From a virus (lineage: Duplodnaviria; Caudoviricetes), in the IMG/VR virus record IMGVR_UViG_3300011577_000001: a stretch of DNA of 64,000 nt; one strand, written 5' to 3'. The stretch's first letter is position 1; each line of letters starts with the position of its first letter. The notes beneath the pieces were generated by a model. That model had not been told where the DNA came from and searched no databases. It was given only the letters and a program-made list of their open reading frames with translations. The position numbers and the translations under genes are program-made. This document shows, piece by piece, positions 1 through 51,714 of this stretch.

Positions 1-1
1 A

Positions 2-307
2 GACCTCGATGACGGGGTAGTGGGAATCAACTTCGTACACCTGATCAAACACGAACTGTTCCCGGTGTTGCTGGAGAACATTCAACCGTCGTTGATTACG
101 TGGAACAAAACGTTCTTCAACGACTACGTGTTCGCCGGTAACAACCTGTTCACCTACTTCGCAGTGAAAGAGAACCCGCTGTTCTTGGGTCTGTTGTGCG
201 GTCTGGACGGTCAACGAAGCGAACTATCCATCATCCCGTCGATGGAGACGGTCGAACAAGCCTGCGTAACACGCATCAAGGAGATCGCTCATGTTTCATC
301 TGTTTAA
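2..307 (+). CDS. Hypothetical protein of the radical SAM operon, 5'-truncated by the window edge
   Basis: Frame is open from base 2; stop overlaps the start of the next gene (291); same codon style as the operon. Confidence 0.7.
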   Translation, partial: DLDDGVVGINFVHLIKHELFPVLLENIQPSLITWNKTFFNDYVFAGNNLFTYFAVKENPLFLGLLCGLDGQRSELSIIPSMETVEQACVTRIKEIAHVSSV

Positions 308-1346
308 CTCAGTCTACGTTGATACCGAACGTCGACTGGATCGCCGGTACGATCACATCACGATCTCCCCTACGATCGGTTACGAGTACGTCCACTTCGA
401 CAAGTATGACAAGATCGGTCAGCAACTGTGGTACTCCACCACGCTCGACCACCTGGACCCGACCACGTTTGAGTACGTGTTCAACCAAGCGTTGCTGTCG
501 GACAAGAAAACCTTCGTCTACTGCGACAACGAAACCTACCTGCGTCTGTACGGCATGTTGGTTAAAGCGGTGTTCCCAAGCGTCGATCTGGAAACCTTCC
601 GCTGGATTCTGCTCTGTAAGAAAGCCACGTTTAACACCACGCTGACCAAGTACGGTGTGACAGACAACAACGCTTTCACCGGGGTGGACATCAACACAGC
701 GGTCATCGACAAACTGTTTGCGTACAAAGACGCTAACCAGAAAGCGATGGAGAAAGTGGTTCGTGCTAATCCAGAAGCGCTGTCGCTGGAATGGCGTGTG
801 GCTCGTCTGGTAGCGACTGGCGAAGTCGGTTCACTGCCGAAGACCCTACTGAACATCCTGCGTCGCATTGCGTTGGCCAACACTCACGATGTACTCGACG
901 TTTGGGGTCGGATGATCACTGACCCGGCTAACTGGGACTACGCAGGCTGCGACATGCAAACCCTACTCGACGCCCCAACCGTGTTCCAAGGAGCGGTAGG
1001 TTTCAACTTCACCAACAACCCGGTGTTCTTGAAGCCTGGTCTGTTTGAACTCAAACCGTCGGAGTCGTGGATCTTCGGTCTGCTGGAAGAGATGATCCCA
1101 TTACTCGAACACTGCGATGAAGGCCCAACTGCTGGGCGTAGTCGTCTGGTGTTGGAACTGCTGCGTAACGGTGGTGACTGGGAAGATCCAGAGAACTGCC
1201 TGAAGAACGTCCACACGATGTTCCGGGGTCCGAAGCGTCTGGCACTACCAAACCGCGACACCGGTAAGTACGACGAAAACCTGCTCCGCTATCTGCTGGG
1301 TCGTGACCCCAGCGAACTGCACGAGTGTTTCCAAGAGAAAGATTAA
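291..1346 (+). CDS. Hypothetical protein, accessory to the radical SAM cluster (351 aa)
   Basis: AAGGAG RBS upstream; stop abuts the next ATG (TAAATG); no recognisable catalytic motif. Confidence 0.8.
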   Translation: MFHLFNSVYVDTERRLDRRYDHITISPTIGYEYVHFDKYDKIGQQLWYSTTLDHLDPTTFEYVFNQALLSDKKTFVYCDNETYLRLYGMLVKAVFPSVDLETFRWILLCKKATFNTTLTKYGVTDNNAFTGVDINTAVIDKLFAYKDANQKAMEKVVRANPEALSLEWRVARLVATGEVGSLPKTLLNILRRIALANTHDVLDVWGRMITDPANWDYAGCDMQTLLDAPTVFQGAVGFNFTNNPVFLKPGLFELKPSESWIFGLLEEMIPLLEHCDEGPTAGRSRLVLELLRNGGDWEDPENCLKNVHTMFRGPKRLALPNRDTGKYDENLLRYLLGRDPSELHECFQEKD

Positions 1347-2354
1347 ATGAACCTGATACCGCTAGTTGACATCCTCGAAGAGAAGAAAGGGAACACCAAA
1401 GAGGCACACTTGATTTTCTTTGAGAAGTGTAACTTGCGGTGTTCGTTCTGTCACCAAGACCACGATTCCGAAGTGGGACTGTCTGCGGACGAGATCCTTG
1501 AAAAGGTCAATACCCTGATCGAGGTGAGCGACCCTGAAGTCCCAATCGTGATCAACCTCACCGGTGGGGAGTTGTTCTCGGACAATATCCCTGACTGGAT
1601 GTTCGGCTACTACTTGATGGCGGGACAGTTGTTGCTCCGTCATTTTAAGCGAGCGAAGTTGGTCTGGGGGACGAACTTGGTTTACAGCGATCTCTTCCGC
1701 GTGATGCGGTTGATGACGATGCTCAAGGCTGAGGCATCCAAAGACCAGAACGTGTGTCTGGCAACGTCCTACGATCCAGCAGGGCGTTTCACTGCGGGTA
1801 ACCGGGATCTGTTTCTGCGCAGTCTCATGGTGGTTAAGCCCTACGTAGAAACAGTGAACGTGGTGATCACTCGCCAGAACATCCAACTGTTCCTGACAGG
1901 TAATGAAGGCAAAGAGTTTGAGTGGTTGTGTAGCAACTTCGACGTGTACTTTGACCACTACATTCCCTCGGAGCGGTACGAAGAGCACCAGCCTACAGAG
2001 TCGGCTATCAGTCAGCTCTATCTGACGCTCGACAAGAAGTATCCCAACTCCTACCCCATCAAAGCATGGAAGGAGAATCGGTTCAATGACACGACCTGTC
2101 GCTCCACGAAGATCATCAACAAGGATGGTGTCGTGACGACGTGTTGGTCAGAAGCCGGTAAAGATGCCATCCTCGATGAAGGGGCTGGTCTGAAGGCTAA
2201 GCACGAGGCGGAAGAACGCTTCTTAAACCACTATGGTTGTTTGGCCTGTGAGTACTATCAACGGTGTGGCTTGCGGTGTTTCTTGCACCACAGCTTCGTT
2301 GAGACGGACTCTAAGGAATGCCAAATCAAAGTGATGTTTGACCAAATCCTGTAG
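1347..2354 (+). CDS. Radical SAM enzyme with C-terminal SPASM-like Cys cluster (rSAM-1)
   Basis: CNLRCSFC (CxxxCxxC), LTGGEL motif, C-terminal CLACEYYQRCGLRC. Confidence 0.9.
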   Translation: MNLIPLVDILEEKKGNTKEAHLIFFEKCNLRCSFCHQDHDSEVGLSADEILEKVNTLIEVSDPEVPIVINLTGGELFSDNIPDWMFGYYLMAGQLLLRHFKRAKLVWGTNLVYSDLFRVMRLMTMLKAEASKDQNVCLATSYDPAGRFTAGNRDLFLRSLMVVKPYVETVNVVITRQNIQLFLTGNEGKEFEWLCSNFDVYFDHYIPSERYEEHQPTESAISQLYLTLDKKYPNSYPIKAWKENRFNDTTCRSTKIINKDGVVTTCWSEAGKDAILDEGAGLKAKHEAEERFLNHYGCLACEYYQRCGLRCFLHHSFVETDSKECQIKVMFDQIL

Positions 2355-2375
2355 CCTCGTATTAAGGACACTCCC

Positions 2376-3464
2376 GTGGATCTGATTATCAAACCAACCG
2401 TGAAGTGTAACTTCAAGTGCACCTTCTGCTCCAGTACCCACCTTTCGGAAGACCCGAAGGAGATTGTGGAACTGGAAGCGATCGAGCGGTTCATCAAACG
2501 TTTTCCAGAAACCCGTACGCTGATCATCAACGGTGGCGATCCACTGATGATGCCTCCTAGCTACTACTGGAAGATCATCGAGATCTTGGACCGACTGGGG
2601 TCTGAGGCGTGCATCTCGTTTACCACTAACCTCTGGGCGTTCTACAAGAAGCCTGAGATGTGGGTGGAGTTGTTCCGACATCCTCGTGTGGGTGTGGGGA
2701 CGTCTTTCCAGTACGGCAATGCTCGCTTGAAAGGCGACGGTACACCATTCACAGAAGAAGAGTTCTTGAAGATCTCGGACATGATGTTGGAGATGGTCGG
2801 TCATCGTCCAGACTTCATCAGCGTGATCGACGAAGAGAACGTTCACACCGTGCTCGATACCGTGCGACTGGCTAAGCGTCTGGGACTGGTGGCTAAGATC
2901 AACTATGTCAGTGCCTCTGGACCTGAAGTGGTGAACCGTGGTGTGACTATGGGTAGCTGGAACCGCATGTACACCCAAGCGGACATCTACGAGAAATACA
3001 TCGAGATCTACGATGCAGGTTTGGGTGAGTGGGAATATAACACGCAGCAAATGACCAAGCGTCTGCGCAACGGTCAGACTACGTGTCCGCTGTCCCGGAC
3101 GTGCGACAGTGGTATCCGTGCGTTGCAGCCGGGTGAGAACTACTACTCCTGTGGTAGCTTCGGGGACGACGGGGAATACCCGATCGACTTCGACCGTGAA
3201 ATGAAAGGTGAATTCTTCACACCTTTGCAGAACCAGATCGAACTGCACTCGATGAAAGAGAGTTGCAATATCTGCCCGATGTTTATCATCTGTAATGGCT
3301 GCAAGAAAACCATTGCGGACACCAAACGTCTGGGTCAGGTTGAACGTCACTGTAAGAAGATGAAGTCACTGGCACCACGCATCATTGAAATCAATGGCAT
3401 GACGGGCGTTCTCGAACCTACACCGTACGAAGACGAATCGTTGCCCCTGATCGCTAAGGGATAA
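2376..3464 (+). CDS. Radical SAM/SPASM enzyme, anSME-like architecture (rSAM-2)
   Basis: IIKPTVKCNFKCTFC, INGGDP, CPLSRTC..YSCG..CNICPMFIICNGC..HC. Confidence 0.92.
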   Translation: MDLIIKPTVKCNFKCTFCSSTHLSEDPKEIVELEAIERFIKRFPETRTLIINGGDPLMMPPSYYWKIIEILDRLGSEACISFTTNLWAFYKKPEMWVELFRHPRVGVGTSFQYGNARLKGDGTPFTEEEFLKISDMMLEMVGHRPDFISVIDEENVHTVLDTVRLAKRLGLVAKINYVSASGPEVVNRGVTMGSWNRMYTQADIYEKYIEIYDAGLGEWEYNTQQMTKRLRNGQTTCPLSRTCDSGIRALQPGENYYSCGSFGDDGEYPIDFDREMKGEFFTPLQNQIELHSMKESCNICPMFIICNGCKKTIADTKRLGQVERHCKKMKSLAPRIIEINGMTGVLEPTPYEDESLPLIAKG

Positions 3465-3469
3465 CTTGT

Positions 3470-4417
3470 ATGAAACCCCCTCTTAATCTTTCGATCAACT
3501 GCTGGTACTATTGTAACTTCAGTTGTTCGTTCTGTTACCTCACCCCGGAGCAGTTGAATGATCGACAACTCTTGCCTCTGGAGGTGTTGGAGCAGCGTGT
3601 GGACGAGGTGATGACGCAGTATCGCATCAACCACGTTGACATCTATGGAGGGGAAGTTCTACTCTTGCCACCTGAGTACCTACAAGCGGTGAAGGGGATC
3701 TTCCATGCTCGTGGGGTGGACGACATCGTGTTGGTGACAAACCTCTCGGTGGTGAATGAAGCAGCACTGGATGAAGACTTCGAACTGTCGGTGTCATATG
3801 ACGGCTTGGCACGTGAGAAGTCAGAACTGGTGTTCACCAACATGTTGATGCTTACGCGACAGTTCACAATCCTCTCGCTCTGTGGGCGGGAGTTTCTGGA
3901 CAAGGTCTCAGTCGATGACTACGTACAAACGTTGAACCTGCTGGGTCACCTGAAATGCGTGGAGATCAAACCGTACAGCTCCAACCAAGCCAACAACCAT
4001 CCCGTGACCAATCGGGAGTTCGAGGAGTTTGTGTGGGCGGTGCTGTCTCACCCGGAACGTAACTTCTACATGGAGAACGAAACCCTGATCAAACAAGCGG
4101 TCGCAGGGATTCGTAATTCATTCAGCGATGACCACATCTACATCACCCCGAGTGGGGAATTTGCGGTGCTGGAGTTCGACCAAGCTGAGCGGGAGTACTT
4201 CCTGCCGGTGGACGGATTGGCTGGCTACCAAGCATGGTGTGAAGCTGAGAAGCAACGGGTGACTACCAACCCATTCTGTGCCAGTTGTGAATTTCTAGGC
4301 ACGTGTCTATCAGAACACTTACGCGACGTGAAATCCATGGACAACTCGTGTAACGGGTTTAAGGGATTGTTGTTGCGGTGGGAGGAAGAATGTTCGTCCG
4401 GCATCGGCAACGACTAG
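3470..4417 (+). CDS. Radical SAM enzyme with C-terminal Cys cluster (rSAM-3)
   Basis: CNFSCSFCY, IYGGEV, C-terminal CASCEFLGTC..SC. Confidence 0.9.
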   Translation: MKPPLNLSINCWYYCNFSCSFCYLTPEQLNDRQLLPLEVLEQRVDEVMTQYRINHVDIYGGEVLLLPPEYLQAVKGIFHARGVDDIVLVTNLSVVNEAALDEDFELSVSYDGLAREKSELVFTNMLMLTRQFTILSLCGREFLDKVSVDDYVQTLNLLGHLKCVEIKPYSSNQANNHPVTNREFEEFVWAVLSHPERNFYMENETLIKQAVAGIRNSFSDDHIYITPSGEFAVLEFDQAEREYFLPVDGLAGYQAWCEAEKQRVTTNPFCASCEFLGTCLSEHLRDVKSMDNSCNGFKGLLLRWEEECSSGIGND

Positions 4418-5418
4418 AGATCACACTCGATCTGTTTCGAGGTTGTGGTCATCATTGTGCAGGGTGTATGATCGACAAGTCGCTGGGTGGGGACATCTCT
4501 GACATCCCTGACCTGTTGGCGTTGATTAGAGAAATGACTGCGGCAGGGTACGTGGCGTTCGACTTAGGTGTTGGACCTACGGACTACATGACATCAACCA
4601 ACACGCAAGAGGTGATGACGAACACCACTTTCCGTGAGATGGCGCAGTTGTTTCATCAGGTGACGTTTAACGCTGCGTTCTTAGACACTCGCATGGAGAA
4701 CTACGGTGCCATGTGTGTGGACATTGATGTAGCGTGTCCTGATAAACCCATTCGTTTTCTAATTCCGGCTGTACCGTCTCATTTCAAGAATGAGAAGTTC
4801 GGCTTAATGATAAAAGAGAAACTGGAGTACATCCAAGAACACTTGGTGGTGGCCCGTTTGAATGAGGCAGGGTTTGTTGTGACCTGTACTCGAGAAACTG
4901 TAGATGAACGTTTTGAAGAATACTTGGCCAACGGGTTTGAGATTGAATTCCCTGTGGACAAAGATGACATCCTCAACATCCCGTATGGTCGAGCGCCTAA
5001 CCGAGATCTCATGGTCGCGCAGAACGTGCGACGGGTGTCCCACCGGATCAGTTCCTTTTATGCGGGGCTCAGCGGTGAAGACGAAAGAAGACGTAATCCT
5101 GACTTGCATTACGACACTGGTACGATGGTCAATCTGCTATATACTGGTGGCAAGCTTTATTGGGTACCGTTCTTAAAGGACGACTGTCCGTTCCTTGACG
5201 ACGACTTCGTGATCCAGCGCCCCTGGACTATGGAGAACTTACTAACGGTCCGTAACGAGGCTCGTGAGCGCTCTATGGACTACTTAGCCGACACTGGGTG
5301 CATGGCGTGTCCACACTTGAGCAGTTGCATGGAAAAGGGCATCACCAACATCATGCAAAAGCTCTCCATCAAAGATTGTTTAGTAGGACTTGAGCATGAT
5401 TCCGACGCGCATTGCTAA
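4390..5418 (+). CDS. Divergent radical SAM-like protein (rSAM-4)
   Basis: GCGHHCAGC, GPTD in place of GGE, C-terminal CMACPHLSSC..DC; ATG at 4390 after GGAGGA. Confidence 0.8.
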   Translation: MFVRHRQRLEITLDLFRGCGHHCAGCMIDKSLGGDISDIPDLLALIREMTAAGYVAFDLGVGPTDYMTSTNTQEVMTNTTFREMAQLFHQVTFNAAFLDTRMENYGAMCVDIDVACPDKPIRFLIPAVPSHFKNEKFGLMIKEKLEYIQEHLVVARLNEAGFVVTCTRETVDERFEEYLANGFEIEFPVDKDDILNIPYGRAPNRDLMVAQNVRRVSHRISSFYAGLSGEDERRRNPDLHYDTGTMVNLLYTGGKLYWVPFLKDDCPFLDDDFVIQRPWTMENLLTVRNEARERSMDYLADTGCMACPHLSSCMEKGITNIMQKLSIKDCLVGLEHDSDAHC

Positions 5419-6436
5419 ATCACTGAACCTCACCCTGGAAGTTCTCAAAGGGTGTGGTTACAGTTGTCCCGGCTGTACGGTGGAGAAAGACTCAGCCCCG
5501 GTGAACATCTCTGACGCTGACGCGACAGCACTGGTGACGATGGCTGAAGACTTGATCGAGAATGACTTCCGCTTGCTGGAGTTTCGATTGGGTCCGACAG
5601 ACATCACCAGCTCGTCCAATTGGCGAGACGTGTTAGCCCATCCATTGATTCACGGGTTGGCTCAGCACTACCGTGCACTCAACGTGTCATTGACCATGCT
5701 CAGTGATCGAGGACTGGAAGAGTTGGCAGCCGACATAGACCCCTTGATGGCGGGAAAGAAACTCAGTGTCTCAATCCCGATGGCGTTAAAGCAAACCTCG
5801 AATCAAAAATACCTCGGGGAGTTACGTAAGCGTATTCTGTACTTTAAGAGTCTGTTTAAGGAAACCGACTTTAACCGCGTTTATGCAAACTTCAACTTGA
5901 TTGATGACAACATCACTCATTTAAACGAAGGGACGTACCAAGCAGCCCACACATTAGACTTGGGCGTCCCTGTCTTCTCGGAGTTCCCGTTTCCACACAC
6001 CCGTAAAGGGATGGGGAACCTGTTGGTACTCAACCAACTGAACCGCGACTTGTACACCTTCTCAGAGTTTCTCAAGGCCCAAGTGAACACGAAGATCTAC
6101 CGCCCGTTGATCCCGAACGTGGTGGATGGCTTTGAGTTTGTCTACCGCAGCGGTGTGTTGTATCACGCCCCAGTGGTGTCAGAGAACCTCCCGATCTTTG
6201 AGTCAGGCTTTGAACTCGCCCGACCATGGAATGCAGAGTCAGTGTTAGGGTTTCGGGAGCAGGGTTACTACGAAGACTTAGTGGCGCTAGCTGAGCATCC
6301 TGAGTGTGGTAGTTGCTGTTTCTTGGACTACTGTTCTCGTGGGTCAGTGAAGCCTTTGATGGACTTGCTAGGGCGTGCAGATTGCCTAACGGGTTTGCGT
6401 AACCGTTGGGACCTCCAACTACACCGACAGGATTAA
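5396..6436 (+). CDS. Divergent radical SAM-like protein (rSAM-5), paralog of rSAM-4
   Basis: GCGYSCPGC, GPTD, RPW motif shared with rSAM-4, C-terminal CGSCCFLDYC..DC; overlaps the upstream stop. Confidence 0.8.
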   Translation: MIPTRIAKSLNLTLEVLKGCGYSCPGCTVEKDSAPVNISDADATALVTMAEDLIENDFRLLEFRLGPTDITSSSNWRDVLAHPLIHGLAQHYRALNVSLTMLSDRGLEELAADIDPLMAGKKLSVSIPMALKQTSNQKYLGELRKRILYFKSLFKETDFNRVYANFNLIDDNITHLNEGTYQAAHTLDLGVPVFSEFPFPHTRKGMGNLLVLNQLNRDLYTFSEFLKAQVNTKIYRPLIPNVVDGFEFVYRSGVLYHAPVVSENLPIFESGFELARPWNAESVLGFREQGYYEDLVALAEHPECGSCCFLDYCSRGSVKPLMDLLGRADCLTGLRNRWDLQLHRQD

Positions 6437-6440
6437 CAAC

Positions 6441-6914
6441 GTGGATATAGTGATCATAGACGACGTCGAGTTCAGCGACGAGTTGATGGCGATCTGCATG
6501 TGTCAACAGAACAAAGCGTACGTGGATGAACCGGAGATCAGTGCTTTCATTGATGCGGTGATTCTACCCCACGTTAAGCGTCACGCCAATGCACACCCGG
6601 ACATCTATGCACAGGCGTCTCACGTACACATCAGTGACCTCGGGCTGGAACCACACACCCACGAACCGTACTCATTGGTGGCGGTGTTGTACTTCTTCGA
6701 CTCACAAGGCGAACTGGTCATTACCGATGGCTCACATCCGAACATACAGCCCCGTAGAGGCCGTTTGGTGTTGATGGGCGGGACTACATCGCATTACGTC
6801 ATTCCGTCAACTGGGCGTGAACTCAGGATGTCGCTGGTGACGAACTTCCACCACGAACAAGTGCAACCGTTTCCTGAAACCAAAGAGGTCTCGGGGAAAA
6901 TCGCGTACACCTAA
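6441..6914 (+). CDS. 2OG-Fe(II) oxygenase-like (DSBH) protein, HxH type
   Basis: PHTH..VAVLYF..G.LVL..HYV..RMS pattern. Confidence 0.7.
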   Translation: MDIVIIDDVEFSDELMAICMCQQNKAYVDEPEISAFIDAVILPHVKRHANAHPDIYAQASHVHISDLGLEPHTHEPYSLVAVLYFFDSQGELVITDGSHPNIQPRRGRLVLMGGTTSHYVIPSTGRELRMSLVTNFHHEQVQPFPETKEVSGKIAYT

Positions 6915-6924
6915 GGATACCCGT

Positions 6925-7482
6925 ATGGATTACTTGGCACCGTGGCCAACCGTGATTGGTGTCACGAACATTGCTGGTCAGATTGACTTGGACTGTTTGT
7001 CCGATGAAGTCTTTAACCTGAACCTGTTGACCAAAGGTGAAGACGCCAGTCAACAGTGGGTAACCCACGAAGCGGTTCCGTTGATCATGCAGTTGCGTGA
7101 CGAGATCATCAACCCGCTGGTGGAACAGTACTCGCTGGAGCAATGGGAATACCCGTTGTCAGGCTACCGGGTGGAAACCAACGCAAAGTGGATTCCAGAA
7201 GGTGAAGGACTGTATCCCCATCTACATCCGGGCAGTAACCTTTCGGCGATCATCTACCCGAAAGACTCACCGTCGGGTATCACGTTGTTTGACCCTCGGA
7301 TGAACGCCTCCCGTGGCTACCCCAAACCGATTCGTCGGGGCTACATGAAACCGGTCACGATCTCACCCAAAGCCGGTGACGTTCTGATCATCCCAAGCTA
7401 CATCCAACACAGTGTCTCTTATGTGAAAGAGGAAGTGCGGTTGTCACTGCTCTTTGAGTATTACTTCGCAGGAGAGGTCTGA
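6925..7482 (+). CDS. 2OG-Fe(II) oxygenase-like protein (TIGR02466/2OG-FeII_Oxy_5-like)
   Basis: PHLHPGSNLSAIIYP..FDPR..PKAGDVLIIPSYIQHSV..RLS. Confidence 0.82.
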   Translation: MDYLAPWPTVIGVTNIAGQIDLDCLSDEVFNLNLLTKGEDASQQWVTHEAVPLIMQLRDEIINPLVEQYSLEQWEYPLSGYRVETNAKWIPEGEGLYPHLHPGSNLSAIIYPKDSPSGITLFDPRMNASRGYPKPIRRGYMKPVTISPKAGDVLIIPSYIQHSVSYVKEEVRLSLLFEYYFAGEV

Positions 7483-7919
7483 TGGCAGAACCCGAATACA
7501 AACAGTACCAACGACTGTACAACCAGTTGGTCACTGAACACACGGACGACTTCAGTTTAATGGAGTACGTCGAATCTCCTGAGATTGTGCAGAACGCTTT
7601 ACACTACTTCAAAGGGCAGTTCTTCCCGTTGATCTATCCGGCGAAGTCCTACGCTGTGGCAGTGATCTACGCGTACCTTATCTTCAAAGAGTATGGGATT
7701 CCAATCCGCGACACCTTGATGGACGACGACCTGTTCTTGGGTCAGGACGAGTACTTCGTTCCTTACTACAAAGACTCGGCGTCTTACGAACAGATCTTGG
7801 CTGCGCTGGATTACATGCCGAACTGGATCACGCTTGGTTGGGCTCCGAAAACGGCAGAGTACTTCCGACTGGAGTGCACGGCGGCGGGGATCGAAGAAGT
7901 CATGAACAACCTTACCTGA
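7482..7919 (+). CDS. Hypothetical Tyr-rich protein within the radical SAM/oxygenase operon
   Basis: TGATG coupling with the upstream gene; GGAGAGG RBS. Confidence 0.8.
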   Translation: MAEPEYKQYQRLYNQLVTEHTDDFSLMEYVESPEIVQNALHYFKGQFFPLIYPAKSYAVAVIYAYLIFKEYGIPIRDTLMDDDLFLGQDEYFVPYYKDSASYEQILAALDYMPNWITLGWAPKTAEYFRLECTAAGIEEVMNNLT

Positions 7920-7929
7920 GTACCTACCC

Positions 7930-8484
7930 ATGGAACTGATTCAACCTTGGAACACGTCGATCCTCAAAGCGAACGTGACCCACTTGGTCAACGTCGAAGC
8001 CATTGCGGCTGAGATCCTGACCCTTCACAGCTTGTCTCCTCAAGAGTCTCGGACAGCGTACAAAGTGACGCCGGAAGAGTTCCCCAAACTGTGCGACTTC
8101 CGTGACCGCGTGGTAACTGGTCTGGTGAAAGAGTACCTCAAGCAAACCATGAACTTCACCCTGACCGAGTTCACCGTCGATACGTTCGGTAAGTGGTTTG
8201 TCAAAGGTTCTGACCTTGCACCCCACACCCACGGCAACAGTGGCATCACCAGTATCTTCTATCCAGAAGACTACGAGTCAGGGATGAGCATCTTTGACCC
8301 GCGCGGTAATGCTTCGCGTGGCTACCCTCGAGCGATTCGTGACGAGCACTTTGCTCCGTACCACGTCTTCCCAAAGGCGGGTGACCTATACATCTTCCCG
8401 GCGTTCTTACAACACTACGTTCCAACCGTCAAAGATGACCTGCGTCTGTCGTTGATCAACGACTTCATGTTCGTTGGGATCTAA
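7930..8484 (+). CDS. 2OG-Fe(II) oxygenase-like protein (TIGR02466-like), paralog of 6925..7482
   Basis: PHTHGNSGITSIFYP..FDPRGNASRGYP..PKAGDLYIFPAFLQHYV..RLS. Confidence 0.82.
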   Translation: MELIQPWNTSILKANVTHLVNVEAIAAEILTLHSLSPQESRTAYKVTPEEFPKLCDFRDRVVTGLVKEYLKQTMNFTLTEFTVDTFGKWFVKGSDLAPHTHGNSGITSIFYPEDYESGMSIFDPRGNASRGYPRAIRDEHFAPYHVFPKAGDLYIFPAFLQHYVPTVKDDLRLSLINDFMFVGI

Positions 8485-8486
8485 AG

Positions 8487-8513
8487 AGGAGGGCTTCGGC
8501 CCTCCTTTATGCC
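8487..8513 (+). terminator. Intrinsic terminator closing the radical SAM operon
   Basis: AGGAGGGC-TTCG-GCCCTCCT stem followed by TTATGCC. Confidence 0.8.
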
Positions 8514-8540: not shown

Positions 8541-9230
8541 ATGGGGACTATTATGTACCAGGTAACCGATCGTAGTGCGATCAAGAAGACGCAACAGAAG
8601 CTTAAGGACCTCGGCTTCTATGAAGGTAAAGTAGACGGGATTTGGGGTCCCCTGTCACAAGCGGCTTTAGAAGCCTCGCGAGGTGAGAAAGTGGTTAGCC
8701 CTACCTTCGACACTACCCGGATTATCTGGGGTAAGAAAGTGTCCAAAGAGTTCATCCTGAAAGTACGTATGATCGCCCAGAAGCTGTTGATGCCTTCCGA
8801 AGGCTCCAACTGGCTGATGGCGTGCATGGCTTTCGAAACGGGTGAGACGTTCTCCCCGACCATCAAGAATGGTGCTGGTGCTCCGTACTACGGTTTGATC
8901 CAGTTCGGTGACGCTGCTGCCAAAGACGCCGGTACTACCGTTCCTGCGTTGCTCAAGATGACCGCCGAGGAACAGCTTGACTACGTGTACAACTTCTTCA
9001 AGCCGTACGCGGGCAAACTGAATACCCTGAGCGATTGCTACATGAGAATACTCTGGCCTGCCGCTGTCGGCAAACCAGAAGACTTTGTAGTGTTCGATCA
9101 GAAAGTGCGTCCAACGGCGTACGTTCAGAACAAAGGTCTGGACATCAACAAAGACGGTAAAGTCACCAAGGCTGAATGTGCAGCCAAGGTCCAACAGAAA
9201 TACGAACGTGGGCAGCAGTTCATCCTTTAA
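8541..9230 (+). CDS. Modular endolysin: N-terminal peptidoglycan-binding domain plus lysozyme/lytic transglycosylase-like domain
   Basis: QQKLKDLGFYEGKVDGIWGPLSQAAL (PG_binding_1 pattern); AFETG..YGLIQF catalytic-type motif; position matches the phiKZ gp144 region. Confidence 0.85.
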   Translation: MGTIMYQVTDRSAIKKTQQKLKDLGFYEGKVDGIWGPLSQAALEASRGEKVVSPTFDTTRIIWGKKVSKEFILKVRMIAQKLLMPSEGSNWLMACMAFETGETFSPTIKNGAGAPYYGLIQFGDAAAKDAGTTVPALLKMTAEEQLDYVYNFFKPYAGKLNTLSDCYMRILWPAAVGKPEDFVVFDQKVRPTAYVQNKGLDINKDGKVTKAECAAKVQQKYERGQQFIL

Positions 9231-9239
9231 GGAAATGTC

Positions 9240-10796
9240 ATGGGTGCATTAGCGAGTTACTTCCCTTCTATGGAAGCGGAATTGCAAGACCCCGAGGACT
9301 TCCTGGGTGCTGGTGCGTTGGTCGAAGATCGTGTAGCTTCGGAGCGTGCTGACAATGACGTTCAAGAACTGACTGAAATTCACGCGTCCTTAGAAGCTTT
9401 GTCGGCCTCGATGGAAGCTGACCTTAAAGCAGATCCTTTCACTCCAGTGTTCATTAACCATGCGCTGGATGCAGTGGGTCGTCGTACTGGCCTGCGCCTA
9501 CCTACCGCTTCATTGGAAGACGCTACAGTCTCCATGGAAGGTTTGGGTGGAGCAATCAAGGCCATCTGGGACGCAATCGTTAAAGCCGTTAAGGCTGCGG
9601 TTGCTGCGGTTGCCAACTTCTTCCGACGGATCTTTGAACTGGTCGCTGGTAAGAAGAAGCGCATCGAAGTCAACTTCGAGAAAGCTAAGAAGGCAGGCGA
9701 TGTCACTCCTTCAAAGCTGGCCGACACCAACAACTTGAGCAAGTTGGCTGATGCTGATGTCCAAGCCATCGCCAAGAAGCTCAAGAAGCCAGAGCTGGCT
9801 AAGTGTCGTAAAGACCAACTCGTTGCGTTAACTGCGGCTGCCGCTACTGTTGTCGATCGCGCCAACATCTTGGACGGTCACGACACTATCGTCAAAGAAG
9901 AAGTCGTTTACAAGAACGAAAGCTTCACCGTAGTGCGTCGTGAGGATGTCAAGCGAGCCAAGTACGTTAAGCTGTGTCAAGCGGGGAATGACTTCATCTC
10001 GCATGCAAGCTTGGCTAAAGTGTCTCTGCGTAAGCTCCAAGACAACCGTTGCGAGATCAACATCACCGACCTGACTGAGCTGGTATGGGAAACTCTCTAC
10101 CGTGGGAAGATGTCGCGTGAAGCGGGCGCTGAGATCGCTAAGTTGGTGGTTAGCGTTTCCAAGTGGGCGGTCGAAGGTCTCAAGCCGTACTTCGAGAATG
10201 GAGGTAAACGACTGGAGGAGTGGGAGGGTAACGCCGAACATGACTTCAATAACCAACTGTTCTTACAGATGGAAGCCTTCCATACCCAGTTCCGTAAATT
10301 CCGTAGCGAAGATGGTCGCATTCCTGCTGGTCGTCGTGTTCGTACTTTCGGTCCTGGTAAAGATATCTCGATGGTCTACGCTGGACGTGATGACCGACCT
10401 TCGTTGAGCGAGTTCACTGAACACGATGTGGTCATGGAACTGCCGACATTCAGTAGCGCTAAGAAAGCCTCTGACGGTGTGACTTCCTTGTTGGTGCTGA
10501 ACACGCAGAAGAACCTGCTGGTCGATATCAACAATGGTTTCAACCAGGCCATCGATATCTGGGATAAAGCGCTTGAGTGGCTGTCAACCCAGAAGTTGGG
10601 CAATCAGTACACGTTCGTGTCTCAGTACTTCACGTTCTACACCAATGTGATCGTGACCCACACCCAAAACTACTTCAACGCTTTCATGCGCTCGCAGTTG
10701 GCAATGGAAGGGACTGTGGTTGGTTGGGGCGACATGCTCTCTGGTGCGATGGCCCGCTTGGCTGATGCTAAGAACCTCGTAGAAGAGTTCGCCTAA
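9240..10796 (+). CDS. Virion head (inner-body-type) protein with propeptide
   Basis: Acidic N-terminus with several S-[LM]-E prohead-protease-type sites, then EGLGGAIKAIWDAIVKAVKAAVAAVANFF helix typical of phiKZ head paralog families. Confidence 0.7.
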   Translation: MGALASYFPSMEAELQDPEDFLGAGALVEDRVASERADNDVQELTEIHASLEALSASMEADLKADPFTPVFINHALDAVGRRTGLRLPTASLEDATVSMEGLGGAIKAIWDAIVKAVKAAVAAVANFFRRIFELVAGKKKRIEVNFEKAKKAGDVTPSKLADTNNLSKLADADVQAIAKKLKKPELAKCRKDQLVALTAAAATVVDRANILDGHDTIVKEEVVYKNESFTVVRREDVKRAKYVKLCQAGNDFISHASLAKVSLRKLQDNRCEINITDLTELVWETLYRGKMSREAGAEIAKLVVSVSKWAVEGLKPYFENGGKRLEEWEGNAEHDFNNQLFLQMEAFHTQFRKFRSEDGRIPAGRRVRTFGPGKDISMVYAGRDDRPSLSEFTEHDVVMELPTFSSAKKASDGVTSLLVLNTQKNLLVDINNGFNQAIDIWDKALEWLSTQKLGNQYTFVSQYFTFYTNVIVTHTQNYFNAFMRSQLAMEGTVVGWGDMLSGAMARLADAKNLVEEFA

Positions 10797-51664: not shown

Positions 51665-51714
51665 GAACAGCTTTCCTTTTCTAAAAGGTTTTAGGTTGAG
51701 GGCATTGCACCAAG

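Follow-up and report, generated by a model that had tools for sequence, protein, structure and literature searches.

Radical S-adenosylmethionine (SAM) enzymes with SPASM domains are known from bacteria to mature repeat-bearing peptides and proteins, and a repeat-type core encoded beside a SPASM enzyme is the usual form of a radical-SAM peptide substrate. Pyrroloquinoline quinone (PQQ) and mycofactocin derive from C-terminal cores processed by SPASM enzymes. In the HXS antiphage system, HxsA, a protein with five HxS repeats, is matured by HxsB, HxsC and HxsD; it gains +8 Da on an SHRSS motif and then stops phage DNA entry from the periplasm (PMC13128918). The triceptide maturases HaaB and HtkB form a cyclophane on His motifs by joining His to a C-beta (PMC11499958). 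Here we analyze a cassette of radical-SAM-like and oxygenase genes in IMG/VR record IMGVR_UViG_3300011577_000001, a phiKZ-like phage represented by a single 240,392-bp contig, of which positions 51,699–115,698 form the window (the whole stretch of 64,000 nucleotides under study). We consider it probable that the cassette enzymes modify the Cys/His-rich tail of one protein, here called X, and that X ends up in the virion as a fibre-associated protein. What is observed directly is the gene content, its synteny, the conservation of motifs, the fibre setting and the presence of one X orthologue in virions.

A preliminary description of this DNA, made from its sequence alone, had noted no characterized phage pathway of such composition. 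The literature we searched agrees, containing no description of the cassette, nor of such maturation for a phage, for a virion protein or by this combination of parts. Jumbo-phage papers list cassette genes only as accessory proteins without assigned function (PMC11898562, PMC5468394), and a broad comparative jumbo-phage survey does not mention radical SAM (PMC7824862).

Protein X and the cassette around it

Window positions 1–8,513 are the right-hand two-thirds of a ~13-kb cassette that runs from a cupin gene to an oxygenase gene, OG3. The preliminary description had seen that the operon extends past the left edge and suggested that a substrate, Cys/His-rich or a virion protein, may lie upstream. 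Retrieval of the upstream DNA bore this out, adding the cupin, the radical-SAM gene rSAM_A, X and the start of a gene called Y. We use L003 for 18 kb of upstream DNA plus the window (L003 coordinate = window coordinate + 18000) and C1 for the genome contig (C1 coordinate = L003 coordinate + 33698). X (227 aa; L003 16878–17561, C1 50576–51259) is located 440 nt left of the window, immediately after rSAM_A. Its C-terminus reads ...CHTSCHSSCHSNVPVCHSSCHSNVPV...CHDSCHSARGRR and comprises 13 C-H-x-[S/N] tetrads followed by RGRR (ARGRR); no other open reading frame (ORF) of the 240-kb genome has a CH-repeat tail. The 66-aa tail contains neither Lys nor Arg ahead of RGRR.

DNA-level relatives are scarce, with only 3–4% coverage by megablast against the phage collection, so relatives had to be sought at the protein level. 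The closest isolate is Pseudomonas phage pPa_SNUABM_DT01 (DT01), and next come the Chiangmaivirus phages RSF1, RSL2 and FLC6. X orthologues in DT01, RSF1, Atu_ph07 and Phosso diverge strongly over their N-terminal parts and share the ending C-H-x-S-C-H-x-S-C-H-x-x-R-[GS]-R-R. Across a 36-sequence alignment of X (19–44% identity), Met1 and three Cys-His pairs are the only invariant columns. The logo of 153 distinct members reads [DN]-V-C-H-[AST]-S-C-H-S-S-C-H-[GS]-S-R-G-R-R; 150 of them have exactly three tetrads, compared with 13 here and 14 in locus L012. Tandem DNA repeats with periods of 33 and 42 nt run through the X gene, and the 13-tetrad expansion arose through tandem DNA duplication. 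The residue two after His is never Gly in 152 canonical X tails.

The invariance of Cys and His alone, with variable x positions, would also fit a tail that serves unmodified as a metal or Fe-S module, either as a structural site in a fibre or as a cluster or electron donor, in which case the enzymes would target other proteins, such as a fibre. Phage fibre and spike tips with His-rich metal sites are known, fibre genes are always found beside the cassette, and six radical-SAM enzymes require clusters and electrons. We nevertheless regard this explanation as unlikely. X directly follows rSAM_A in every lineage, which is the usual place of a precursor, 13–14 tetrads are more readily understood as a repeated substrate than as a defined metal site, and a genuine Hxs substrate shares CHSS repeats (below). 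The neighbouring fibre proteins, for their part, show no other conserved repeat or motif and are not homologous across lineages.

Conservation of the cassette argues for modification of X by its neighbours. A scan of IMG/VR with rSAM_C yielded 80 loci, which together with five isolate-phage loci and this phage make 86. Gene order is conserved across the 80 IMG/VR loci and the five isolate phage lineages; with ORFs assigned by phmmer, the common order is cupin, rSAM_A, X, Y, (Z), rSAM_B, rSAM_C, rSAM_D, W, (oxygenase). An ORF ending in CHxxCHxxCHxx is present in 67/86 loci, and the loci without it are mostly truncated contigs. In most loci X lies 4–6 kb upstream of rSAM_C; a few (L038–L042) have it on the other strand. 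The cassette is found both in phiKZ-like phages and in unrelated phages of 470–490 kb, and rSAM_E, rSAM_F and additional oxygenases are common in the phiKZ-like branch. The preliminary proposal of a pathway like those for peptides made by the ribosome and modified after translation (RiPPs) thus gains support from X, its invariant Cys-His pairs and the conserved cassette, and a pathway of this kind appears plausible on these sequence grounds.

One branch (L076–L085) is minimal: of the cassette genes it retains just rSAM_A, X, Y and rSAM_C, besides Z-like ORFs, and it has an added B12-binding radical-SAM gene. Its X proteins end in ...CHGS[IL] with no RGRR. This gene content suggests that rSAM_A and rSAM_C go with the tetrads, and that the RGRR end is tied to rSAM_B, rSAM_D, the cupin and W; the evidence for this split is weak, as it probably reflects one evolutionary event. 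In L082 (10992–12896), the B12-binding radical-SAM gene (634 aa) comes right after rSAM_C, and fibre proteins with Peptidase_S74 and Gly_rich_2 come next.

Cassettes also appear on contigs assigned to bacteria. Contig L087 (1–4268), from a Dysosmobacter segnis isolate assembly, carries the X, Y, Z, rSAM_B and rSAM_C genes. The X segment there has 95% protein identity to X of this phage and likewise 13 tetrads, and the contig probably entered the assembly as contamination from a phage closely related to this one. Cassettes with canonical proteins ending in three CHxS tetrads and RGRR occur in Bdellovibrio/Bacteriovoracia metagenome-assembled genomes (MAGs; L090, L094, L098, L100) and in a Rhodobacteraceae bin (L105). 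Near-complete sets are present on L094, L098, L100 and L105, the last with two tandem X genes, and the 3.6-kb L090 has only X, Y, rSAM_C and rSAM_D. These contigs could be mis-binned phage, prophage or host genes. Bacterial (CHxx)n ORFs on cyanobacterial, Beggiatoa and Thiotrichaceae contigs were considered as relatives of X and rejected as frame artefacts, because they run antisense inside ORFs of 750–900 aa and have no radical-SAM neighbours.

X belongs to a large family. A profile search of 5.8 billion proteins returned at least 1,351 sequence clusters; among the matches listed, all are unnamed or "hypothetical protein" and none has a Pfam domain. In the AlphaFold2 (AF2) model, residues 1–165 have a predicted local distance difference test score (pLDDT) above 90 and the tail is disordered. 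Searches of the PDB with the N-terminal domain found nothing at E <= 0.001 with Foldseek and a best Z of 3.9 with the exhaustive aligner VIA, and a BFVD structure search matched only X's own family. In Myoviridae sp. ctijX18, three proteins of 504–660 aa (A0A8S5USJ7, A0A8S5USJ8, A0A8S5USV2) resemble the X N-domain (E 2e-5 to 2e-4), and the domain appears from this comparison to have been multiplied inside larger proteins. A complex prediction for X and Y scored 0.00, which speaks neither for nor against binding.

Comparison with described maturation systems

We scanned curated family models (NCBIfam) against 18 proteins of the region. The best, though weak, matches were to protein and peptide maturases: anSME (TIGR03942; 45 bits for rSAM_A and 48.5 bits over the full length of rSAM_C, cut-off 349), PapB (44.5 bits, cut-off 340), AmcB (NF041718; 44.4 bits for rSAM_A, cut-off 425), DynA (37.4 bits, cut-off 450) and FxsB (TIGR04269; 33.2 bits for rSAM_A, cut-off 370). 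Lower scores were obtained with HxsC (TIGR03977; 25.8 bits, cut-off 267.9), GrrM (TIGR04261; 23.2 bits, cut-off 310), HxsB (TIGR03978; 20.1 bits, cut-off 370) and the CXXX-repeat maturase (TIGR04115; 18.5 bits for rSAM_A, cut-off 350). All of these scores are far below the cut-offs, so the cassette is not a member of these families. The preliminary description would have counted against its own reading a grouping of the enzymes with known cofactor or housekeeping families and no co-occurrence as a conserved cassette; we find instead scores far below the cut-off of every such curated family, and a conserved cassette. The system would be an as yet uncharacterized form of radical-SAM protein maturation.

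By analogy of function, the closest counterpart of the cassette appears to be the bacterial HXS antiphage system (Li et al., Nat Commun 2026, PMC13128918). Shared traits, on our reading, are a folded protein, not a short peptide, with tandem repeats resembling His-x-Ser, several radical-SAM enzymes (one SPASM in HXS), a link to the cell envelope and phage entry, and basic residues beside the repeats. The two also differ. The phage enzymes score 16–26 bits against HxsB and HxsC, the HxsA models do not match X, and no match to HxsD was found among the 18 proteins scanned. Unlike HxsA, X has an invariant Cys before each His and a period of 4 rather than 3, and its repeat is C-terminal and followed by RGRR. 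The phage cassette combines 4–6 radical-SAM enzymes with a JmjC-like cupin and 3-His oxygenases, and it is phage-encoded, with a product that would go into virions, whereas HXS yields a periplasmic defence effector of the host.

A link between the two repeat types comes from L104 (1–17732), a contig of an uncultured archaeon MAG. This is a true Hxs locus, with an HxsB that scores 442.5 bits against the cut-off of 370 and serves as a positive control, five HxsC/HxsC4-like radical-SAM genes, an ACGX-type SPASM enzyme and SufS. In its 487-aa HxsA-like protein, (HSS)n passes straight into (CHSS)n, which suggests that, alongside radical-SAM enzymes, the His-Xaa-Ser repeat varies naturally into the C-H-x-S tetrad.

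Other characterized systems share single aspects with the cassette. anSME (PDB 4K36) is the best full-length match of rSAM_A and rSAM_C and resembles them in size, in a full set of SPASM Cys and in having no N-terminal RiPP recognition element (RRE); its own substrate type is a Cys or Ser oxidized within a protein. X, however, has no C/S-x-P/A-x-R motif, and no sulfatase is present. Triceptide SPASM maturases (HaaB and HtkB, grouped here with AmcB, FxsB and GrrM) join an aromatic or imidazole ring to the C-beta two residues on, in tandem Omega-x-x units, a spacing that H-x-S fits, but their substrates are short leader-core peptides, usually with one enzyme, and have no invariant Cys per unit. 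The CXXX-repeat system (TIGR04115) has Cys at period 4 in a target encoded beside a radical-SAM/SPASM enzyme, but is bacterial and without virion context. His-to-C-beta cyclophane formation on X would be chemically compatible with its tetrads, in which Gly never stands two places after His in canonical tails, and thioether formation or Cys oxidation would be equally possible.

Enzymes and orphan proteins of the cassette

Within window positions 1–8,513, 11 complete co-oriented genes and the left-edge-cut Y form an unbroken chain on the + strand, with junctions that overlap or leave gaps of at most 21 nt, as expected from the preliminary count of at least 11 overlapping or near-abutting genes. 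That description's five radical-SAM-like enzymes and three oxygenases are right for the window and too few for the whole cassette, which with the upstream pair has six and four, respectively. The six are rSAM_A (346 aa; L003 15836–16876) and, consecutively in the window, rSAM_B (335 aa; 1347–2354), rSAM_C (362 aa; 2376–3464), rSAM_D (315 aa; 3470–4417), rSAM_E (346 aa; 4378–5418) and its paralogue rSAM_F (348 aa; 5390–6436), the last two being divergent.

All six proteins have a CX3CX2C motif within the first 35 residues (starting at residues 11–28), and the five in the window have C-terminal CX2CX5C-type clusters, as had been proposed; the motif and the C-terminal cluster Cys are 98–100% conserved across 28–73 homologues per family. 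The numbers of conserved C-terminal Cys in rSAM_A, rSAM_B and rSAM_C (8, 7 and 8) correspond to the full SPASM pattern, and the four each in rSAM_D, rSAM_E and rSAM_F are sufficient for one auxiliary cluster. In rSAM_A, C14/C18/C21 and the eight C-terminal Cys are invariant among 64 homologues (phrog_1802, E 7e-50). rSAM_B has C28/C32/C35 and seven C-terminal Cys that include CX2CX5CX3C (phrog_1802, E 3e-32), and rSAM_C, the most conserved gene of the cassette (52–76% identity in the 80 IMG/VR loci), has C11/C15/C18. Invariant positions are C15/C19/C22 and C270/C273/C279/C294 in rSAM_D, C23/C27/C30 and C308/C311/C317/C334 in rSAM_E (29 homologues), and C22/C26/C29 and C306/C309/C315/C332 in rSAM_F (28 homologues).

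The Pfam Radical_SAM model (PF04055, cut-off 29.5 bits) is passed by rSAM_C (48.8) and rSAM_D (34.7), rSAM_A (23.9) and rSAM_B (22.3) fall below it, and rSAM_E and rSAM_F have no Pfam match. The SPASM model TIGR04085 gives 23.6 bits on rSAM_A, just below its 27-bit cut-off, so that the SPASM assignment of this protein rests on the Cys motif and not on the model score. Profile comparison with hhalign links rSAM_A to rSAM_D mutually at 92–99% (rSAM_B to rSAM_A, 99.3%) and rSAM_E to rSAM_F at 100%, with weaker links from rSAM_E to rSAM_D (80%) and rSAM_A (71%). We grouped rSAM_E and rSAM_F with the radical-SAM set because of the invariant motif together with these weak profile matches. All six enzymes start too close to their CX3CX2C motif to accommodate an N-terminal RRE (PqqD-like) leader-binding domain, and we therefore propose that they may act on a protein, as anSME and HxsB/HxsC do.

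The oxygenases would add a second type of chemistry. The three in the window, OG1 (157 aa; 6441–6914), OG2 (185 aa; 6925–7482) and its paralogue OG3 (184 aa; 7930–8484; 37% identity to OG2), are small double-stranded beta-helix proteins, and all keep H-x-H...H plus Arg, in agreement with their first reading as HxH oxygenases. OG2 (41.5 bits) and OG3 (34.8 bits) pass PF13759 (2OG-FeII_Oxy_5/TIGR02466, cut-off 27). OG1 is below threshold for 2OG-FeII_Oxy_3 (22.1 bits) and PF13759 (19.2 bits) and matches OG2 by hhalign at 97.6%. Invariant residues are H72, H74, H118 and R129 in OG1, though among only 8 homologues, and H99, H101, H162 and R172 in OG2; in OG3, H99 is invariant and H101, H162 and R172 are 98% conserved (51 homologues). 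The nearest solved proteins to OG2, 2rg4 and 3bvc, are both uncharacterized. The upstream cupin (168 aa; L003 15329–15835) scores 43.3 bits with JmjC_2 (PF08007, cut-off 22) and 44.6 bits with Cupin_2 (PF07883, cut-off 27.2), and it has an invariant facial triad, H105-x-D107...H145, with K120 98% conserved; models and triad together mark it as a putative JmjC/cupin Fe(II) oxygenase. O2-sensitive radical-SAM enzymes and O2-requiring Fe(II) oxygenases are thus encoded side by side, and relatives infect aerobes where their hosts are known (Pseudomonas, Ralstonia, Burkholderia, Agrobacterium).

Such a combination might also make a modified nucleoside or base, or another small metabolite, with X unrelated to it; the preliminary description had allowed for a small-molecule or modified-base product. 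Phage DNA hypermodification pathways include radical-SAM and 2-oxoglutarate (2OG) enzymes, the N-terminus of rSAM_D matches the viperin model (40.7 bits, cut-off 180), and Chiangmaivirus cassettes hold two dihydrofolate reductase (DHFR)-like genes. We now consider such a product extremely unlikely. SPASM and auxiliary-cluster domains typify peptide and protein maturases, the cassette has no kinase, glycosyltransferase or nucleotide-binding genes, and it is located in the tail-fibre module, not the replication module. The DHFR-like genes, moreover, are absent here and from DT01, Atu_ph07 and Phosso. In RSF1 and FLC6 they lie between rSAM_B and rSAM_C (L001:10745–11861; L002:10674–11887), and the RSF1 insert additionally contains an HNH gene.

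Y, Z and W were described at the outset as three proteins of no known family (Y in part), and remain so. Pfam searches with every aligned member (28–36 each) gave no family and only scattered chance matches, and hhalign found no relationship of the three to one another or to the enzymes. Y has 257 aa when read from a TTG start at L003 17534 (C1 51232), and its 3' end occupies window positions 1–307 (coding 2–307). Its true start may be a GTG just past the X stop, because the conserved part begins near residue 19. Y adjoins X in 65/85 related loci searched. Its AF2 model has a pLDDT of 90, Foldseek and VIA found no such fold in the PDB (best Z 4.7, for a terminal helical hairpin only), and the ESM Atlas holds no fold match (best TM 0.42). 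Z (351 aa; 291–1346) is present in 37 loci by phmmer, with weak profile matches in the minimal L082 variant; we considered it as a decayed radical-SAM protein and rejected this, with hhalign at no more than 0.5% against all six. W (145 aa; 7482–7919) is present in 68 loci and matches phrog_20737 (function not assigned). Among its 13 invariant columns are D22, K55, D89 and E131, and many of the columns are polar or aromatic. Atlas feature searches with W and Z were uninformative, with scores of 0.83–0.85 and no common family. One possibility is that an unrecognized leader-recognition protein is among Y, Z and W.

We infer X as the substrate, a division of labour among the enzymes and a role in the particle. 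rSAM_A and rSAM_C, which have full SPASM patterns and are present in every variant, would use 5'-deoxyadenosyl radicals to modify Cys and/or His-x-Ser in each tetrad, with crosslinks or oxidations as the likely products by comparison with anSME and with thioether-forming and His-cyclophane-forming SPASM enzymes. rSAM_B, rSAM_D, the JmjC-like cupin and W may perform further steps on tails that end in RGRR, and rSAM_E, rSAM_F and the 3-His oxygenases OG1–3 may add tailoring specific to the phiKZ-like lineage. The enzymes would act on the protein, possibly aided by Y, Z or W. Mature X would then be assembled into the virion, probably in the tail fibres or baseplate, where the tail, rich in Cys and His and with a basic end, could serve to bind metal, to form cross-links or to touch the cell envelope.

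Virion context, possible transcription unit and significance

The cassette sits behind tail-fibre genes. Its immediate upstream neighbour, up418 (418 aa; L003 14022–15278), is a tail-fibre-like virion structural protein that matches phrog_2163 (E 1e-123) and tail-fibre PHROGs, and the upstream order is a fibre-like gene (792 aa), a 130-aa ORF, a fibre-like gene (983 aa), up418, cupin, rSAM_A, X and Y. The preliminary description had placed the operon directly upstream of a lysis and tail block; lysis genes do follow, but the cassette lies behind tail-fibre genes as well. Fibre, tail or structural genes also flank it in at least 8 other lineages: they do so in L016, L024, L032, L038, L051, L064 and L065, L082 has DUF4815, Peptidase_S74 and Gly_rich_2 proteins at its flanks, and in Atu_ph07 and Phosso the cassette follows a virion structural protein of ~4,400 aa. 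Some phages have proteins that begin with a Gly_rich_2 tail-fibre domain and continue with the X domain and ...VCHASCHSSCHSSRGRR, and another fusion joins the X domain and seven tetrads to a DUF285 surface-repeat domain.

Virion proteomics of Atu_ph07 detected gp170 with 8 unique peptides and 35% coverage (PMC6102473, Supplementary Table S5), and the computed mass of the Atu_ph07 X orthologue equals the mass listed for gp170, 31.89 kDa. The neighbouring gp176 and gp177 are virion proteins too, and the virion list does not include the cupin gp172, the radical-SAM proteins gp171, gp168 and gp165, or the Y protein gp169 (PMC6102473). Flanking genes, fusions, proteomics and the absence of the enzymes from virions together point to a place for the X product at the virion periphery. 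In the same gels, gp170 peaks in band 1, with proteins of 87–127 kDa, and proteins of 29–34 kDa are normally in bands 7–8 (PMC6102473). The band 1 material may be a covalent high-mass species; disulfides through the tail Cys could explain it, since the loading buffer lists no reducing agent.

These observations bear on a further explanation, in which X is a precursor with a large leader and its tail is cleaved off to give a released redox cofactor, metallophore or bioactive peptide, comparable to PQQ, mycofactocin or methanobactin. PQQ and mycofactocin provide the precedent, there are weak matches to MftC and PqqE-type models among many others, and several oxygenases suggest heavy oxidation. 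We hold this to be very unlikely: the cassette contains no recognizable peptidase, the orthologue gp170 is found in virions at 35% coverage, the fusions of X and fibre domains keep the tail at the extreme C-terminus, and X has a conserved N-domain whose fold is modelled with high confidence.

Modification of X as a fibre-associated virion protein remains our preferred explanation, and several points weigh against it. In no phage has such a modification been seen. Because Cys and His are typical metal ligands, the tail might need no modification to function. Ser occupies the fourth tetrad position in only 87–93% of cases, so strict His-to-Ser chemistry is not required. Presence in virions was shown for a single distant orthologue, on a gel without a listed reductant, and the RSF1 orthologue of X (ORF071) is not annotated as a virion protein. 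Aerobic hosts of the relatives are awkward for six oxygen-sensitive enzymes, and Y, Z, W and the X N-domain have no recognizable fold or family.

The unit is closed by a terminator-like hairpin on the + strand (8485–8508), which the preliminary description had placed at 8487. It has a GC-rich 10-bp stem, a UUCG loop and UUUAU directly after it (-18.6 kcal/mol, 34-nt segment). A second UUCG hairpin (L003 10603–10623) lies after the 792-aa gene, 15.9 kb upstream of the first. Both are intergenic, both are followed by a U-rich stretch, and for local hairpin stability both rank in the top three of the 19 kb scanned (sliding ViennaRNA fold). A generic terminator scan and an inverted-repeat tool did not pick up the UUCG hairpins, the scan overlooking the one at 8485 because its T-run is short. 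The two could bracket a single 15.9-kb unit or transcript. The gene after the first hairpin (8541–9230) encodes a peptidoglycan-binding domain and also matches baseplate-hub and cell-wall-hydrolase PHROGs (phrog_196, phrog_4928) over their C-terminal parts, and its product may be a virion-associated lysin rather than an endolysin. A phiKZ internal-head-protein domain follows at 9240–10796.

The cassette takes up more than 5% of the 240-kb genome, which makes it costly, and it is widespread. A bolder proposal, which we put forward as doubtful, is that several unrelated jumbo-phage lineages put a radical-SAM-crosslinked, Cys/His-rich and probably metal-binding appendage on a fibre-associated virion protein, that the appendage is needed for adsorption or DNA passage across the envelope, and that it is the phage counterpart of the host HXS system. 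If that is so, radical-SAM post-translational chemistry would be met for the first time on a virus particle. With 13 tetrads in place of three, this phage offers more sites per molecule for mass spectrometry. If modification of X is confirmed, it would open up enzyme chemistry of a new class acting on Cys-His-x-Ser units, and it would give a function to four orphan families (the X N-domain, Y, Z and W). It would also represent a new principle by which virions or tail fibres mature, one that may be linked in mechanism to the HXS defence against phage entry.

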